A DNA stretch of 25,623 nucleotides from a virus (taxonomy: Duplodnaviria > Caudoviricetes), in the IMG/VR virus record IMGVR_UViG_3300034073_003672, positions 1 to 25,623 of that record. One strand, given 5' to 3'. The notes under the pieces are model-generated. The model was not told the DNA's origin. It saw nothing but the letters and a program-made list of their open reading frames with translations, and did not search any database. Shown here piece after piece: positions 10,366-22,779 of this stretch (its first letter is position 1; each line of letters opens with the position of its first letter). The translations under genes were made by a program, and so were the position numbers.

Positions 10366-10393
10366 ACCCCATACTATACGTATAGTATGGGGT
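10366..10393. other. Protelomerase target telRL (28-bp perfect palindrome)
   Basis: ACCCCATACTATAC|GTATAGTATGGGGT, about 160 bp upstream of the protelomerase gene. The core resembles phiHAP-1/VP882-type sites as recalled. Confidence 0.9.
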
Positions 10394-10555
10394 GTAATGT
10401 ACACCACATATTGCCCTAGGGCATTGTGTATATACACAGTGCCATAGGGTTATAAATGTACATAGATGGTAAAAATAGGGCTTGACATATACATAGTTGT
10501 GAACTAAAAATATATGTAGGGTTTATTGTGTACTTTTATTGCGAGGTTGACGGCT

Positions 10556-12178
10556 ATGAGTGGCGAAAGCAGAAAGAAGGTAGACTTAAAAAAGTTAGTT
10601 GATGAGCTGATAGCAGAGGTGAAAGTCATCGATGCTGATGACTCTTTGAATCGGTCAGAAAAAACAAAGCTGATAACTCGGGCAGCAACAAAGTTTAAAA
10701 ACAAATTGCATGATGACGGCCGAAAAAAAGACGATGCCAGGATAGCGCTCGGCACCTATCGCAAGTATATGACGCAGGCTAGAGCAGAGGTAACGGCTCA
10801 GAATTGGAAGCACCACAGCTTAGGGCAGCAAATAGAGAGGCTTTCTAAGAAGTATCCTCAGTTCGCTGATGCCTTTCTAAAAATGAATGAAAAATATCAC
10901 ATAACTGATATAAGGCTTGCTCATAGAGACCTGTTAAATAGCATCAAAGATAACAATGAAGCCTATGAAGATATTAAGGGCATGAAACTGGACCACGAGG
11001 TGATGCGCCATTTAACTGTTGCCAGCGCCCAAAAAGCGAAACTGGCAGACCAGGCGGCCGAATCGTTGGAATATAAGAAGCACTCCACTGTTGAAATTAA
11101 CTATCACCAACTGCTCGCCAGTGTGGTCGACCTACTGACGAAGAAAACAAAGACTGTTGGCAGCGACAGTGCTTATAGTTTCAGCCGCTTGGCACTCGGC
11201 ATAGGCTTTGCCACTGGCCGCAGGTCAGTCGAAATACTAAAACAGGGTGAGTTTAAAGTCCTGGATAAACAACGGATGGAATTCTCCGGACAGGCCAAAA
11301 AGCGCGGTGGTGCCGACTACAGCGACTCATACACGATTTACACTCTGGTCGACGCTAACCTTGTAATGCAGGCTATAGAGCAAATGCGACAGCTGCCTGA
11401 AGTTGTAGCCCTGGATGACTTTGACGAGCTGCCAGAAGTGAAGCGAAACGACGCGATTAATAAGCGTTGTGCAAAAACGCTTAATACCACTGCAAAGCAA
11501 TTTTTTGACGATAATGAGCGGGTTTTTAAAGACTCCCGGGCAATATGGGCGCGCCTGGTGTATGAGCTGTTTTTTAAGCGCGACAAACGCTGGGCTAAAA
11601 AGGATGAGGATGTTTTCTGGCAAGAGATGCTGGGCCACGAGGATATGGAAACGCAGAAAGCTTACAAACAGTTCAAAATAAACTATGACGAACCAGAAGC
11701 TACTGCAGCTGAACCGGTCAAATTCAAAACCAGACTGGAGGCTATGATGGCACTGGATGAGGAGATGGCGGAACGGCCAGCTCTTTTAAAAATTCACGAC
11801 TGGGCAAAGGGGCGCCTGAAGCAGGACCCAAATGCCACCATCAACCAGTCAGTGATCACCAGGGAAATCGGCTCCGGCCGGAAAGTGATCAAGGACTATT
11901 TAGACTTAACGGCCGACGCTTTAGCGGTGACTAATGTGGAGGTGACTGTGGCGCCTGTTCCTGCCAAAAGTGCGCGCCAGGATAAAACAGAACCTGCAGA
12001 TGGTGCTGGTGTAAAACCATTCCTGAAGGCCCAAAAAGTGGATGATGAACACTATGAAGCGGTGGCGCTGGTGAATGGAGAGGAGGTCGCTCGAGTAAAA
12101 ATTAAGGGCGGCAGAGTTGAAGCTATGACGGCCGCCCTGGAGGCTTTTAAGAAATCGTCAGCTGTTGGTCGACATTAA
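10556..12178 (+). CDS. telN: Protelomerase (telomere resolvase)
   Basis: ATGRRSVEI, FSGQAKKR, FKDSRAIWAR and LGHED..TQKAY catalytic motifs. GAGG RBS before the ATG at 10556. Confidence 0.95.
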   Translation: MSGESRKKVDLKKLVDELIAEVKVIDADDSLNRSEKTKLITRAATKFKNKLHDDGRKKDDARIALGTYRKYMTQARAEVTAQNWKHHSLGQQIERLSKKYPQFADAFLKMNEKYHITDIRLAHRDLLNSIKDNNEAYEDIKGMKLDHEVMRHLTVASAQKAKLADQAAESLEYKKHSTVEINYHQLLASVVDLLTKKTKTVGSDSAYSFSRLALGIGFATGRRSVEILKQGEFKVLDKQRMEFSGQAKKRGGADYSDSYTIYTLVDANLVMQAIEQMRQLPEVVALDDFDELPEVKRNDAINKRCAKTLNTTAKQFFDDNERVFKDSRAIWARLVYELFFKRDKRWAKKDEDVFWQEMLGHEDMETQKAYKQFKINYDEPEATAAEPVKFKTRLEAMMALDEEMAERPALLKIHDWAKGRLKQDPNATINQSVITREIGSGRKVIKDYLDLTADALAVTNVEVTVAPVPAKSARQDKTEPADGAGVKPFLKAQKVDDEHYEAVALVNGEEVARVKIKGGRVEAMTAALEAFKKSSAVGRH

Positions 12179-12391
12179 CTTTACTAGCTCTTGAAGCCTA
12201 CGACTTTGTTTTAGCAGGGCGGTGTAAAAGCCGCCGCTTTCAGAGCCTTGATTAACCTGGTTAGCAACGCTGGCCATCCCTACCAGTTCCTCTGCAGACA
12301 GAGTTGCTTCATCTAATAAATCTTCTAATGACGTCGAGACTTCCTGTCGTAGCCTTTCCGTCGCCAATACTTGCTGTACTACATCATTCAC
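12158..12391 (-). CDS. Small helical hypothetical protein (77 aa), candidate effector or antirepressor
   Basis: GTG start with an AGGAG RBS. Third gene of the module; overlaps the 3' end of telN convergently. Confidence 0.65.
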   Translation of the reverse strand: MNDVVQQVLATERLRQEVSTSLEDLLDEATLSAEELVGMASVANQVNQGSESGGFYTALLKQSRRLQELVKLMSTNS

Positions 12392-12403
12392 AAGTTAAAA
12401 CTC

Positions 12404-12922
12404 CTATTTTAAAAATCCTTTCTTACGCAGCATTCTGACAACAATCACTGTTTGAATTGTGAGCCAGGTTAAAATTGCTACTTCTGCATAGCTCAGTATG
12501 CCTTTAAATATCTCATAATTGTCGAAGAAGAAAAGGCTCGGCTGTATTCCAAGCCGGGCCTGTTCAAATTCGACGAATACCATCAGATTGACAGCAATAG
12601 AACCAAAGTAAGTGCCAATTAAAACCCACTCTGATTTTAATCTATGGTACACCACACGCCAGCCTGTAAAAACATGGATATAAGGCCTCCACAAAATAAC
12701 CAGGCACATAAATAAATCATTAAAGCTGTGAGCCACATAAAAAAATTGACGGTAGTCGCCTTTTTTCATCGACTGAAGCAAAGGTGATAACACAGCAATA
12801 TCTAGTAGCTTTGGCACCAGCATCAATAACAAAATCGAATGCAGGTTACTATTCCTTTTAGCCAAAAAAACCAGCAAAAGTATCCAGAGGCACAAAAATC
12901 CATTTTCAATGACTGGCGGCAT
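12404..12922 (-). CDS. Multi-pass membrane protein (172 aa, about 5 hydrophobic segments)
   Basis: Several hydrophobic stretches and a basic C-tail (RMLRKKGFLK). GGGGA RBS. Confidence 0.8.
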   Translation of the reverse strand: MPPVIENGFLCLWILLLVFLAKRNSNLHSILLLMLVPKLLDIAVLSPLLQSMKKGDYRQFFYVAHSFNDLFMCLVILWRPYIHVFTGWRVVYHRLKSEWVLIGTYFGSIAVNLMVFVEFEQARLGIQPSLFFFDNYEIFKGILSYAEVAILTWLTIQTVIVVRMLRKKGFLK

Positions 12923-12938
12923 TAACTAATTCCCCGGC

Positions 12939-13196
12939 TTATTGCTGATTTACTACTACCGGAGGATCGGTTTTATCTTTTCCGCCAGAAGTTAAAGCTC
13001 TTACTTCATACGTTGACGGCTCTTCCTTTTCACCAGAACTAAGCGTCACAATATCTTCTGAGGTTACAGTTTTAACGACTGGCGGGTCAGTTTTGTCTTT
13101 GCCGCCTGATGTCATTGGGCTAACTGTTCCGCCTGAAAGGGCTGGGTCTTGAGTTGCCGTCGTCAATACTGATGTGCCGAGATTTTTAATGTCCAT
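12939..13196 (-). CDS. 85-aa repeat-containing peptide precursor-like protein
   Basis: ATG at 13196 with an AGGA RBS. TSGGKDKTDPPVV occurs twice, with 10 of 13 codons differing only synonymously. Confidence 0.85.
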   Translation of the reverse strand: MDIKNLGTSVLTTATQDPALSGGTVSPMTSGGKDKTDPPVVKTVTSEDIVTLSSGEKEEPSTYEVRALTSGGKDKTDPPVVVNQQ

Positions 13197-13218
13197 TTTT
13201 TTCCTTTTTCGGGTTGTC

Positions 13219-13259
13219 AAAATACAGTTATAGGTACTGCCCGTCAATGCCCTATAACT
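13219..13259 (-). promoter_or_regulatory. Putative sigma70 promoter for the peptide module, with an overlapping inverted repeat
   Basis: Minus-strand TTGACG-17-TATTTT. AGTTATAGG-16-CCTATAACT inverted repeat brackets the -35. Confidence 0.55.
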
Positions 13260-16200
13260 TCTGGTTAACCTTCAATCGTAGCTGCCTTTCGCGATACCGC
13301 GACCTCAGAAGCTGTACCAGCTCCGCTTTGCCTATCAGCTGCCGGTCAATATCCAAAATGTCCTGTACTGACAACTGGGCTTGGGCAAATTCCGGAGGGA
13401 TCTCTGTGCCGGATATAAACTCATGCACGATCCTTATCACTCGATCTCGAACATAGGGATACTTCTCATCTGTACATATATGACTAATTTGGAAAGTGTC
13501 CCCATCGCCACAGAGCTCGGCCTCAAAGGCTTCTGGAGGTATTGGCTGCGCGTCCAGGCCTGTCTCTCTGCGTAGGGCTGCAGGTGCGTCCTTATCGTGG
13601 AACTGAAGGCTGCTGATGCCGTTCGATTTTCTGAGCTGAACATAACGCATCATGTGGGCCCAGGAGCCGGGTTCAATCATTAGCATGTTGTGGCCGCTTG
13701 ACTTCCACTTGTGGATCACAAGACCAAAACGCTCCAGAATGTTTTTAATGAACGTTGTCGGGTCTTTAGGCATTGCGCTAGGGTTTACATAGGCCCCGAT
13801 TTTAAGCGCGTTATACAGCTCTATAGAGGCCCTGTCTTTGAGTATGTCCGACATGGCCACCCGAGCCGCTTTATGCGTAAATTTACCTTCACCGGTCATC
13901 GGGTTTATGCCGAGCTGTTGGAACAGCTTCACATAAAGATTCCTGGTGGCGCGTTTGTAGTTATGCCTGGTCAAAACCACCTTGTTTTTTATTTGCGCCA
14001 TATCGTAGGCAACGGCCTCTGCATCACTGGACTGCAGCAGCTCCATGGCCGCCACTTTCTTGATGCCCCGGTCATCATAAAACGCTATTACTTCCGGAGT
14101 AATTTCTGCCACGCATAACTGCGTTTCCATGTGGTACCGGTCAATCTGTGCTGCCTCGGCCTCTGACCTTAGTTCTGAGCGGCTCAACCGGTTATAGACG
14201 TCGTCGTCTGGTGTTGGCTGGCTCATGATCATCTCGATGCGTTTCATCTCGATAATCCCCTTGCCCCACTTCTTCATTTGCTTCGCTGCAGCTATGGCAT
14301 CGTCATCAGCACAAAGCGCGTCGACAACATAGCGGTCAGCTATGAGGATCAGCAGCAGGTTGTTGGCGAAGTCGTTGCGGCTTCGGTTTTCTTCCGCTAT
14401 CGATGCCAGGCGAACTTCGTCATAGATGGTTTTTTTCCGACGCAGAATAATTTCTGTGCTTGTCTCTTCAAAATCGACAGTTAGCTCATCAGCTGCCACC
14501 AGGCCGCGATAAATAGCCTCGCGGTCAATATCCCGCTGCGTGTTGTTTATGCCTATTCCCATGACGTACTGGCGCGCCGTTCTGTCGCGTCTCATCATTT
14601 GTACAGCGTCTGTCGGCGGTACCACCCCATGAAAAATAGACACATGGTTGCTAAAGTGCGGAACGGTAATTGATACCCCGGAGCTGATAGCCGGTGAATA
14701 AATAATGACATCGTATTTAGTGCATTCGCCGTTTGGATCGTTCAAAAACGCTTCCACGTTTGCATCCGCTTTGCTGTCCTTGTGAACGTGCATTACACGA
14801 ATATCGGGCTTTTGTTGCTTCAGCACTTCAACCATTTTTTTGCCGTCTTTGGCTGAGTCGTTGGCCACCAGTACGGTCTTATCAGCCTTGGCCAGCGAGA
14901 TAACTTCAGCAAAAGCGCTATTGATGTCGGTGTGCAGGACGCTGATGTGTTTGCATGTGCCGGTCACTTCGATAATGTGAATAGGTTCACCAGGGCGCGC
15001 CATCTCACACAGGTCAATCAGGCCGTCATTGGCATCAGCATCGCACAACAGAACACGCCTGGAGGCGCGCATGGCTTGCACTAAACCGTCCATCACTAGG
15101 ACAGGATTATCGACAGGACCATTGGTTGTATGTCGCATTACCTGGCTGGCCTCATCAATACACAATGTATCAACCGTCTGAAACCAGTTCAGGCCGTCAG
15201 CGTTGGAAAATTTAGGGTTAATGATGGAATTTACACAGCATGCCAGGTGCGAAACAAACGGCATTTCCGAAGCCATGGTGTCCTGGTAATTGCTAATGTT
15301 CAGGCGGTTTGACGCATCACCGATCAGGCTGACCCTGTGGGCGATGTAAGCGGCCTTTGGTGCGCGGTGCATGATGGGCTGGATCAACAGGTCAGTTTTG
15401 CCTGAACCCATCGGGGAGCGGATAATTATACAGCCCTGCAGACCTTCCACCAGGTCGACAACAGCGCTTGGGATCCTGACGTTACCATGCTCCGTTTCTT
15501 CGCCCTGCAGGCGTATATAATTTACATTCGGCTGACTGAGTGCCTGGTCTGAAAAAGAGCGTAATGTCCTGGCGCGGTGCAGTTTACCTTTGGCCAGCCA
15601 GTTAATGCGGCCTCTGACTTTAAATTCGCTGATGCTTACGCCAGCTGGCAGACTGTTTTGCACATAGCGATAAACCTGCTCTGTACTGTACTTTATTGGC
15701 GACAGCATCATGCCAGCGCCAACGGCCTTCAGCGCCTCATCGTTTGCATTGTCATGACCAGAAAAACTAAGCCGCTGCAGGCAGTACTCAAAATAATGAG
15801 GATGTGCCACCAGTCGATTTTTACGGGCTTTAATTTGCTTCTTCACTTCGTCCAGACCTGCGATGCAATGCAGGTCGTTGAAGTCGGTAGGCTTCTTGCT
15901 GATGTCCAGCTCATCGAACAACGGATAAACAGAACGGATCCCAAAATCTTTATGCAGCTCGATGGCCGTCATTAAACCTTTGTTGCCGACCTTAATTTTA
16001 AATGCGTCGTTATCTGCCGCGTTAGTGATCTGCAACTCCGGTCTGTAGCGACTGTAATCGCGCAGAACCTTCTTCAGGTTGTCGGCGTTCATTGCGACAA
16101 TAACAGGGATGCTGGTGGCTAAAAACACAGTAGCACCGGTGGCGAAACCTTCGGTGGCATACGCCTTATCACTGGACTCAAGGTCGCCAATAATACAGTG

Positions 16201-16974
16201 CGCGCCATCGAACTGATGGTCATCGACGGCCACGGTATATTTTTTAAATTTTTCGTATAGCCGCTGCAGGCCCTTGTACTCGCCGTGAATGTCATGCAGA
16301 GCGATGGCTGTGAAATCCCCTGACCAGTCGCGCATGCGCTTCAATTCAATAGCACCAGTGGCGACAATGTCAGCAATCTGCTTTAGCTGAAAATATGGGG
16401 CGGTGCCGTCTTCAGCACCTAAGTACTGAACTGCATTACGGGGCAGCTGACGGTTTTCCTGCCGGATAAAAACATCCTGGTACGCCAGATGCTCGTTATA
16501 GCGCAGCTCCCTGGCTTTCTTTTCCTTGGCTTCCAAAGCAGCAAGCCGGTCCTGTCGGTCCCGGCGTTTTTTTGCTTGCTGCTCTGCCCAGGCGTTTTGC
16601 CTGGCTGAATCAATTCTTTGGCCGCCCTCCTGCTGATATATCTCCAGAAGCGCTTTAAAGCCGTCAAACGTCGCGGTGTAGCCGCCGTCTTTTTGCGTTG
16701 TGAAGTTGATGTGAGGGTATTCGATGCCGCCAGCTGTGCGCTTAATAGAGCCGTAAACAGCAACCTTGCCGTTATAGCCTTTTTTGAGGGTCTTTATTTT
16801 GCCGCGCAGCTTTTGGTCGTTCAGCTGGACATCGGATGAAATAGCGTGCCAGTCGACCTGAACCTCTGCAGCTGTTGCTGCAACATCCGAGCTGCAGAAG
16901 TCGAGCAGCGTATATGGATCAGAGTTAAAGCGCGCTTGGTAGAACTCTATGAGAGAACTTTTATTATGGGACAC
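13252..16974 (-). CDS. repA: Replication protein RepA (Toprim primase plus helicase), N15/VP882-type
   Basis: 1240 aa. Toprim motifs TEGFATG, AADND and TDFNDL; helicase motifs SPMGSGKT and IDEASQ. Syntenic with telN and cI. Confidence 0.9.
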   Translation of the reverse strand: MSHNKSSLIEFYQARFNSDPYTLLDFCSSDVAATAAEVQVDWHAISSDVQLNDQKLRGKIKTLKKGYNGKVAVYGSIKRTAGGIEYPHINFTTQKDGGYTATFDGFKALLEIYQQEGGQRIDSARQNAWAEQQAKKRRDRQDRLAALEAKEKKARELRYNEHLAYQDVFIRQENRQLPRNAVQYLGAEDGTAPYFQLKQIADIVATGAIELKRMRDWSGDFTAIALHDIHGEYKGLQRLYEKFKKYTVAVDDHQFDGAHCIIGDLESSDKAYATEGFATGATVFLATSIPVIVAMNADNLKKVLRDYSRYRPELQITNAADNDAFKIKVGNKGLMTAIELHKDFGIRSVYPLFDELDISKKPTDFNDLHCIAGLDEVKKQIKARKNRLVAHPHYFEYCLQRLSFSGHDNANDEALKAVGAGMMLSPIKYSTEQVYRYVQNSLPAGVSISEFKVRGRINWLAKGKLHRARTLRSFSDQALSQPNVNYIRLQGEETEHGNVRIPSAVVDLVEGLQGCIIIRSPMGSGKTDLLIQPIMHRAPKAAYIAHRVSLIGDASNRLNISNYQDTMASEMPFVSHLACCVNSIINPKFSNADGLNWFQTVDTLCIDEASQVMRHTTNGPVDNPVLVMDGLVQAMRASRRVLLCDADANDGLIDLCEMARPGEPIHIIEVTGTCKHISVLHTDINSAFAEVISLAKADKTVLVANDSAKDGKKMVEVLKQQKPDIRVMHVHKDSKADANVEAFLNDPNGECTKYDVIIYSPAISSGVSITVPHFSNHVSIFHGVVPPTDAVQMMRRDRTARQYVMGIGINNTQRDIDREAIYRGLVAADELTVDFEETSTEIILRRKKTIYDEVRLASIAEENRSRNDFANNLLLILIADRYVVDALCADDDAIAAAKQMKKWGKGIIEMKRIEMIMSQPTPDDDVYNRLSRSELRSEAEAAQIDRYHMETQLCVAEITPEVIAFYDDRGIKKVAAMELLQSSDAEAVAYDMAQIKNKVVLTRHNYKRATRNLYVKLFQQLGINPMTGEGKFTHKAARVAMSDILKDRASIELYNALKIGAYVNPSAMPKDPTTFIKNILERFGLVIHKWKSSGHNMLMIEPGSWAHMMRYVQLRKSNGISSLQFHDKDAPAALRRETGLDAQPIPPEAFEAELCGDGDTFQISHICTDEKYPYVRDRVIRIVHEFISGTEIPPEFAQAQLSVQDILDIDRQLIGKAELVQLLRSRYRERQLRLKVNQKL

Positions 16975-17315: not shown

Positions 17316-17933
17316 TCAAGCGATCTGAATACAGAATTTCACTGTACCACAAAATACAGCTTCGTCATGTAAAATTGCTGAAGGGTACTGAGGGTTTAAA
17401 GCCTTCAGGAATGCGCCTGTGCCGTCAACAATGAGTTTTCTAAACACAGGAGTTTCAGCACCGTTTGTCACAACAACCGGCGTGTTGTTTCTCATGTTCT
17501 TTTCACGCACAACAATGATGATGGATCCATCAGGGTACGACTCATTTTGTGCTGACTGCATACTTTCGCCTGAAACCCTTAGCGCATAGGCATTACCCGC
17601 CACAGGGTACGGCGAATACACGTACTCCAGTACAGGATCAACGGTAGGGTCAAACGACTCAGCCAACCCCCAGTCTATAACTGGTACCAGCTGGCCACTT
17701 GGAGTTTTTTGGTCAGCTGCAGCACCGCCACAGGCTTCTCTAAAAAGACTATCCAGCGAAATACCGAGCGCCGTGGTCAGGATGAAGAGCAGCTGGCCGG
17801 ATGGTTCCAGCCCTTCTCTTTCTATCCGAGATAAATGACCAGGCTGAATTGCACCGCCAACTTTGTCGCTGACTTCTTGCAAAGTTAGCTGTTTTGACTT
17901 GCGAATTCGCCGCAGAATTTTCCCAACGTCCAT
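17316..17933 (-). CDS. cI: cI-like prophage repressor (XRE HTH plus S24 domain)
   Basis: LRRIRKSKQLTLQEVS...LSRIER helix-turn-helix and ALRVSGESM...LKALNPQY S24 fold. Confidence 0.88.
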   Translation of the reverse strand: MDVGKILRRIRKSKQLTLQEVSDKVGGAIQPGHLSRIEREGLEPSGQLLFILTTALGISLDSLFREACGGAAADQKTPSGQLVPVIDWGLAESFDPTVDPVLEYVYSPYPVAGNAYALRVSGESMQSAQNESYPDGSIIIVVREKNMRNNTPVVVTNGAETPVFRKLIVDGTGAFLKALNPQYPSAILHDEAVFCGTVKFCIQIA

Positions 17934-22163: not shown

Positions 22164-22427
22164 ATGCTCGGCTTCATGAGCGCAAAGCAGGCTAAGGCAG
22201 CAGGCTTTACACATCATGGCAGCCATTACGGCATCCCGGTTTGGATTGGAGACCCTGAAGGTGACTTCATGGTCGCCACCAAGTGGGCGCCTGCTGAACT
22301 GCTGATGACTCTATTTCATTACATCGAGGGATTCATCCAGTCAGTTGTCTGGCCTGATGAGGAGCATGGCTTTCAGTTCGCACTGGGTCAGGCCATCGAT
22401 GCGGAAGGTAACAACAGTAAATCATAA
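22164..22427 (+). CDS. Hypothetical protein (87 aa)
   Basis: GFTHHGSHYGIPVWIG motif; fills the operon gap. Confidence 0.65.
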   Translation: MLGFMSAKQAKAAGFTHHGSHYGIPVWIGDPEGDFMVATKWAPAELLMTLFHYIEGFIQSVVWPDEEHGFQFALGQAIDAEGNNSKS

Positions 22428-22440
22428 AATCAGGAAAAAA

Positions 22441-22779
22441 ATGGAAAACCAGCACCGCAAAATTAAAGGTTATCGTGAACTCTCTGCATCTGAAATCGAT
22501 TTGATGAACCGCATCAAAGATAAGGGCGCTGAGCTACTGGCTTTACAGGCAGAACTAGCAGGCTCATTAAGCACAGCTTATGCAGAAAAGCTTAATGCAG
22601 CAGTGAAAGCACAAGAAGGTACAGGCTTCAGCATCTATCAAGGAGCGACTGATGAAGCGATTGAGTTCCGCCGCTTCAGTGATGCAGAACCTGAACGCTG
22701 GGCCAACATCGGCAAGACCGATATACAGACTGGCTTGATGGCCATGGTGCGCGCTGTAGCGCAGCCAGCTGGCGTCTAA
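22441..22779 (+). CDS. acb2: Anti-CBASS cyclic-nucleotide sponge protein Acb2 (T4 Vs.4 family)
   Basis: MENQHRKIKGYRELS..EIDLMNRIK and EPERWANIGKTDIQTGLMAMVRAVAQP match the Acb2 signature as recalled, with Y11 and K26 in register. Confidence 0.88.
   Translation: MENQHRKIKGYRELSASEIDLMNRIKDKGAELLALQAELAGSLSTAYAEKLNAAVKAQEGTGFSIYQGATDEAIEFRRFSDAEPERWANIGKTDIQTGLMAMVRAVAQPAGV

Follow-up and report, generated by a model that had tools for sequence, protein, structure and literature searches.

Between the convergent genes telN (protelomerase) and repA (primase-helicase) of a linear plasmid phage, we find a real, conserved cassette of three co-oriented genes encoding a repeat-bearing peptide precursor, a membrane protein with five helices, and a third, small protein. 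The slot that it fills is known for lysis-control modules, and, judged from sequence, the cassette may serve as a peptide-sensing control of lysis. The DNA analyzed (the window) is a 25.6-kb fragment (25,623 nucleotides) of this phage, in which Pfam recognizes telN, repA, cI, Q, lysis, terminase, parAB, and tail genes. The three minus-strand ORFs of the slot, of 85, 172, and 77 aa (Table 1), each have a purine-rich stretch ahead of the start (3/3), in agreement with the original prediction of three genes, each with a ribosome-binding site, between repA and telN. None of the three proteins matches Pfam, PHROGs, or NCBIfam, and the predicted absence of a LuxR or HTH factor from the slot holds on the same searches. 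The complete record G003 (38.2 kb) shares 99.9% identity with the window and does not count as a separate occurrence. Upstream of telN, a perfect palindrome at window positions 10366-10393 is likely the telomere resolution site; G003 is rearranged there relative to the window.

Table 1. Coordinates of the cassette and of the features discussed with it (window positions).
Feature	Position	Strand	Remarks
telN protelomerase	10526..12178	+	context; 68% identical to VP882 TelN
77-aa small protein, qtip position	12158..12391	-	overlaps telN 3' end; candidate antirepressor or effector
172-aa five-helix membrane protein, unnamed family	12404..12922	-	D69, R79, and E98 invariant in 31/31 rows; predicted N-out, C-in
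85-aa repeat-peptide precursor	12939..13196	-	ATG at 13196, stop at 12939; two identical 13-residue copies, core GG-K-DKTDPP, and one degenerate copy
9-bp inverted repeat, 16-base spacer	13226..13259	.	over the repA stop codon; weak -35 match
repA primase-helicase	13252..16974	-	context; convergent with telN
CI repressor (HTH_3 + Peptidase_S24)	17316..17933	-	presumed target; catalytic Ser/Lys positions kept, VP882-type Ala-Gly absent

The 13-residue repeat of the precursor begins at residues 29 and 69 and is identical at 13/13 residues, with the degenerate copy lying between the two; this length was reached by none of 2000 shuffles, whose maximum was 6. The two copies differ at 10/39 bases and every change is silent, and this speaks directly for translation of the ORF and for selection on the amino acids of the repeat. 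The repeat-bearing precursor described from the DNA alone therefore stands. A precursor that is 89% identical (P0004) retains both cores, and the core shows little variation among the four alleles available (the window, P0004, X12 in part, and L062), while the membrane proteins encoded beside it span 41-66% identity; in this it is unlike private phage codes. The peptide had also been proposed to be exported. The 85-aa precursor contains neither a hydrophobic signal stretch nor a cysteine, and in three precursors the top 9-residue hydropathy within the first 33 residues was 0.94-1.14, that is, no signal peptide by a hydropathy scan, which is not a signal-peptide predictor. Export is thus invisible in the sequence, and this part of the proposal found no support. 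A peptide search of the ESM Atlas returned only scores under 0.9, and a loose core pattern matched 20 viral loci, with the membrane gene in only the 2 already known.

A family profile of the membrane protein, built from 8 sequences, retrieved 27 representatives (E up to 0.001) among 1.84 billion. The alignment used for conservation has 31 rows, consisting of 26 of the 27 representatives (a 103-aa fragment was left out) and five earlier rows; P0021 repeats the L062 protein. Besides the invariant residues of Table 1, N26, D41, N112, and K140 are present in 28-30 of the 31 rows. Family hydropathy and an AlphaFold model with five long helices (pLDDT 92.5) both support five membrane-length helices, as had been estimated from the single sequence; an earlier fold based on 4 sequences had a pLDDT of 46 and was unusable. 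Basic residues cluster in loop 3 and at the C terminus, and the positive-inside rule points to a predicted topology with the N terminus outside and the C terminus inside. Family members are 158-227 aa long, which leaves no room for a cytoplasmic output domain.

The family has no name in the resources searched. Pfam gave no family for any member at E 0.001. PDB sequences searched with a profile yielded no match below E 0.4, and viral models searched with Foldseek yielded none at E 0.001, the best rows being mostly unnamed or uncharacterized proteins. Searching annotated phages and plasmids with family members by tblastn yielded nothing useful. The ESM Atlas contains feature-level look-alike clusters of hypothetical Pseudomonadota proteins (score 0.92), so the family may be larger. 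Searches of gammaproteobacterial genome samples at E 0.001, run with no positive control, found the family in 0/400 genomes on three occasions, apparently largely the same draw, and one of these samples held one 53-column match at E 0.005. Further genome samples at the same threshold, again with no positive control, gave 0/15, 0/2, 0/156, 0/12, and 0/17, and four candidate loci on genome contigs proved to be unrelated genes.

The start of the cassette had been read as a putative promoter and operator, and neither reading was upheld. The promoter match (9/12) is at chance level, with 2 sites found and 2.5 expected. The 9-bp inverted repeat (13226-13259) is present in the sequence, yet it runs over the repA stop and forms a modest RNA hairpin (z -1.86; 10/200 shuffles as good), and its half-site did not turn up in the control regions of cI; a hairpin or terminator in the RNA is just as probable here as an operator. 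A terminator-like hairpin with a T run also lies on the minus strand at 12535-12555, within the membrane gene and ahead of the small ORF in the direction of transcription. The small-ORF effector could be uncoupled by it from the first two genes, but terminator-like sites are near chance in number (3 found, 1.4 expected).

The cassette is a conserved, mobile three-gene set of linear plasmid phages. Among 52 telN loci taken from IMG/VR, for which we listed the slot contents, it is present in 2. One is a near-identical copy of our phage; the other, L062, belongs to a phage whose TelN is 51% identical and whose RepA is only about 20% identical. After telN, L062 has a gene for a peptide of 43 aa (core GG-G-DKTDPP), one for a membrane protein of 173 aa that is 41% identical to the 172-aa protein (E 3e-36), and an 82-aa ORF. 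The two phages thus have in common the core GG-x-DKTDPP. L062 preserves the gene order within an inverted block, in which the small ORF abuts repA, not telN. Slot contigs were examined in 8 of 20 listed metagenome runs. In X6, one contig spans the slot at about 92% identity. On one contig of X12, telN is followed by the small ORF, then by a membrane gene that has diverged but has the same length, by a likewise diverged peptide gene in which 20 bases covering the start of the core match exactly, and finally by repA. Unlinked homologues of the three genes had been set beforehand as grounds for abandoning the proposal; they are linked in L062 and on the X6 and X12 contigs. Cluster look-ups gave small-ORF relatives at 90-92% identity and membrane relatives at 65-66% on contigs of matching length, which we infer from these lengths to be linked with each other and which were seen together directly only on a 5060-base contig; gene neighborhoods are known for only a few members of the membrane family. 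The small terminase subunits of this phage (window 23062-23667) and the L062 phage (L083 471-1076) are 92.5% identical, against about 20% for RepA, which points to recent exchange and perhaps a shared host.

The small ORF shares the last 21 bases of telN and lies on the same strand, and in the same place against telN, as Qtip in L005 and L006. Against a profile of 20 slot ORFs it did not score above shuffles (52/500), a weak test, since Qtip itself reached only 6 bits when left out, and hhalign gave no match (slot-ORF profile 0.5%, Qtip 0.15%). Homology to Qtip is therefore unsupported within the reach of these comparisons. Of the Qtip-sized effector originally proposed, the qtip-like position is confirmed, whereas a relation to Qtip was not detectable. 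The 77-aa ORF and the 82-aa ORF of L062 show a weak likeness, with a local score reached by 6/3000 shuffles and only 0.75% by hhalign. A complex prediction for CI with the 77-aa protein scored 0.00 and is uninformative either way.

The CI of this phage is 41% identical to VP882-type CI. Its S24 domain keeps the Ser and Lys positions, and the alignment places DWGLAE here opposite SWVQAG in VP882-type CI, leaving no Ala-Gly at the aligned site. The best sites of G003 differ from the LexA consensus at 4 positions or more, and the slot is devoid of such sites. With no Ala-Gly in CI and no LexA site in the slot, another induction route seems to be needed. An antirepressor under other control could reasonably supply it, and the 77-aa ORF is suitably placed for one. 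The CI of the L062 phage was not found by tblastn with this phage's CI at E 0.01; as the two small ORFs look related, this dissimilarity fits a shared target other than CI.

Most other telN loci are arranged differently from these two. A LexA-type box, by a pattern that we take to be the consensus, lies within 520 bases after telN in 44/52 loci (34 exact, 10 near); of the remainder, 7 have none and 1 is incomplete, and the slots of this phage and L062 are without one. Where ORFs were listed, the box stands in most cases ahead of a single small ORF, and an induction gene is thus what this position usually appears to hold. Most of the loci L029-L077 have a lone ORF of 85-110 aa behind the box, about 250-330 bases after telN, in the qtip position. 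The CIs inspected in LexA-box phages (L008-L017) have neither the Ala-Gly nor the catalytic Ser, which fits induction by a LexA-controlled antirepressor, and the lone slot ORFs look like an SOS-controlled antirepressor family related to Qtip in position. The layout of prophages with non-cleavable repressors and LexA-controlled antirepressors, in the part of PMC3121763 available to us, is the apparent arrangement of most of these related telN loci. Our phage likewise pairs a non-cleavable-looking repressor with a small candidate antirepressor, but differs from that layout in having no LexA-type box in the slot, as does L062. Two further slot contents were noted, a resolvase-like gene with a 113-aa ORF and a LexA-type box (L033, 1801-2827) and an 80-aa small ORF with a divergent 106-aa ORF (L073, 1752-3430). 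The accessible text of PMC12802170 describes HAP-1-like phages as having no TF-smORF module.

The nearest known systems by position are VqmA-phage/Qtip of VP882 and the TF-smORF modules, which, in the parts of PMC10432266 and PMC12802170 available, occupy the same repA-telN slot. As in VP882-type phages, a small protein of about 80 aa is encoded on the strand opposite to telN and abuts its 3' end, in the company of a similar TelN (68%) and CI (41%). In our phage, however, the peptide and membrane genes stand in place of vqmA, the small ORF is the last of a co-oriented trio and is not divergently transcribed, and it has no sequence likeness to Qtip. The cassette is accordingly not a TF-smORF module, because the divergent transcription factor that defines those modules is absent. 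According to the portions of Silpe et al. (10.1101/2022.09.16.508337) available, small ORFs of the slot are non-proteolytic antirepressors, and repA-telN DNA of linear phage 63 did not induce lysis. In PMC10432266, the word "membrane" is absent from the main text, 12 of the 22 supplements gave no match, and the locus could be among the 274 repA-telN loci of that study. No description of a cassette of this kind was found in a literature search that mostly excluded subscription journals, and the architecture is apparently new and undescribed.

The original prediction had likened the cassette to arbitrium. That system consists of AimP, AimR, and AimX of SPbeta-like Bacillus phages, with a signal-peptide precursor and an intracellular receptor of the RRNPP type with TPR and HTH domains. 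Both belong to temperate phages and divide the work among three genes, for a peptide, a receptor (putative here), and a small effector. In contrast to arbitrium, the phage here is of gammaproteobacterial type, the precursor has repeated cores and, by hydropathy scan, no signal peptide, and the putative receptor has neither TPR nor HTH and is integral to the membrane. In the four alleles available, the core shows little sign of diversifying with the putative receptor, barely changing while the membrane protein drifts to 41% identity. We therefore do not class the cassette as arbitrium or as arbitrium-like. The available part of a 2026 review (PMC13389391) places arbitrium-like peptide communication in phages of Gram-positive hosts.

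Our preferred reading, held tentatively, is that a peptide-gated membrane sensor controls a CI-antirepressor-like effector post-translationally. The precursor would be cut into core peptides, which, having no signal, might reach neighboring cells when the host lyses or by way of the membrane protein. The GG-x-DKTDPP core would be the likely ligand, with a putative binding pocket lined by D41, D69, E98, N112, and K140. As the cassette encodes no transcription factor, control would be post-translational, with the membrane protein holding or releasing the 77-aa protein at its basic cytoplasmic face and the free protein inactivating CI without cleavage. Of the lysis-lysogeny role proposed at the outset, the position of the effector and the sequence of CI fit, whereas the export, the operator, and the likeness to arbitrium are unsupported as originally put. 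Several results count against peptide-gated control: the precursor has no signal peptide, the cassette no transcription factor, the proposed operator no support, the small ORF no likeness to Qtip or the slot ORFs, and the core little diversification. The presence of the cassette in only 2/52 loci, the flipped small ORF of L062 that abuts repA, the dissimilar CI of that phage, and the result with phage 63 also weigh against it. We regard as doubtful the more specific version, phage-to-phage communication among Gram-negative temperate phages, in which a signal-less, multi-copy peptide leaves lysed or lysogenic cells, is sensed by a new family of receptors in the inner membrane of other cells, and switches a CI antirepressor without a transcription factor. 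If true, this cell-to-cell version would take over from both SOS cleavage and host quorum sensing in triggering induction.

An unlikely alternative, and the one that survives best, is that the peptide and the membrane protein serve the lysogen in superinfection exclusion or anti-phage defense, with the peptide shutting or triggering a membrane effector and the small protein acting as a partner, not as an antirepressor. Conserved charged residues within the membrane helices would also fit a pore or transporter, and a mobile cassette that flips its orientation, has no transcription factor, and keeps its small ORF with the membrane gene across unlike CIs is compatible with such a role. Against this stand its place, which is that of induction modules, the want of any other obvious induction route in this phage, and the failure of PHROGs, Pfam, and NCBIfam to match a family. 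Distinctly unlikely, in our estimate, is that one transcript combines two functions, the 77-aa ORF being an ordinary slot antirepressor and the peptide and membrane genes a passenger pair, for example a captured host signaling pair. This would accord with the lone small ORF that usually fills the slot and with a membrane family wider than these phages, given its 27 representatives and the Pseudomonadota look-alike clusters (0.92). However, the three-gene order is kept in L062 despite the inverted block, the two cassette small ORFs resemble each other (6/3000 shuffles) and not the lone slot ORFs, and no chromosomal copy appeared in the gammaproteobacterial samples searched with no positive control. 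Finally, it is improbable that the peptide acts only inside the cell, as a tag, leader, or substrate bound, cut, or modified by the membrane protein, since, although the missing signal peptide, the nearly constant core, and invariant Asp, Glu, Arg, and Lys residues that could be catalytic would suit it, no enzyme family matches and a precursor that carries several cores is typical of peptides that are processed and released.

Under peptide-gated control, a module of peptide, membrane protein, and effector in a VP882-like sensory slot would carry peptide communication across the Gram-negative envelope with another receptor architecture. The candidate ligand, of 9 to 13 residues, can be synthesized, and CI-PR reporters have been published for this phage group, which makes the claim directly testable. 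Even with no role in signaling, the pairing of a new membrane family with a peptide core under selection would still need explaining.

Two further features of the window were noted. The late region contains a gene for an Acb2/Tad1 hairpin-domain protein, by Pfam, of an anti-defense sponge family (22345-22779). Within telN, positions 11592-11635 are matched by the 89-base contig 8 of run X8, which has the same non-phage sequence on both flanks; its layout resembles that of a CRISPR spacer between repeats, with a type I-E look, and it could point to the host genus.
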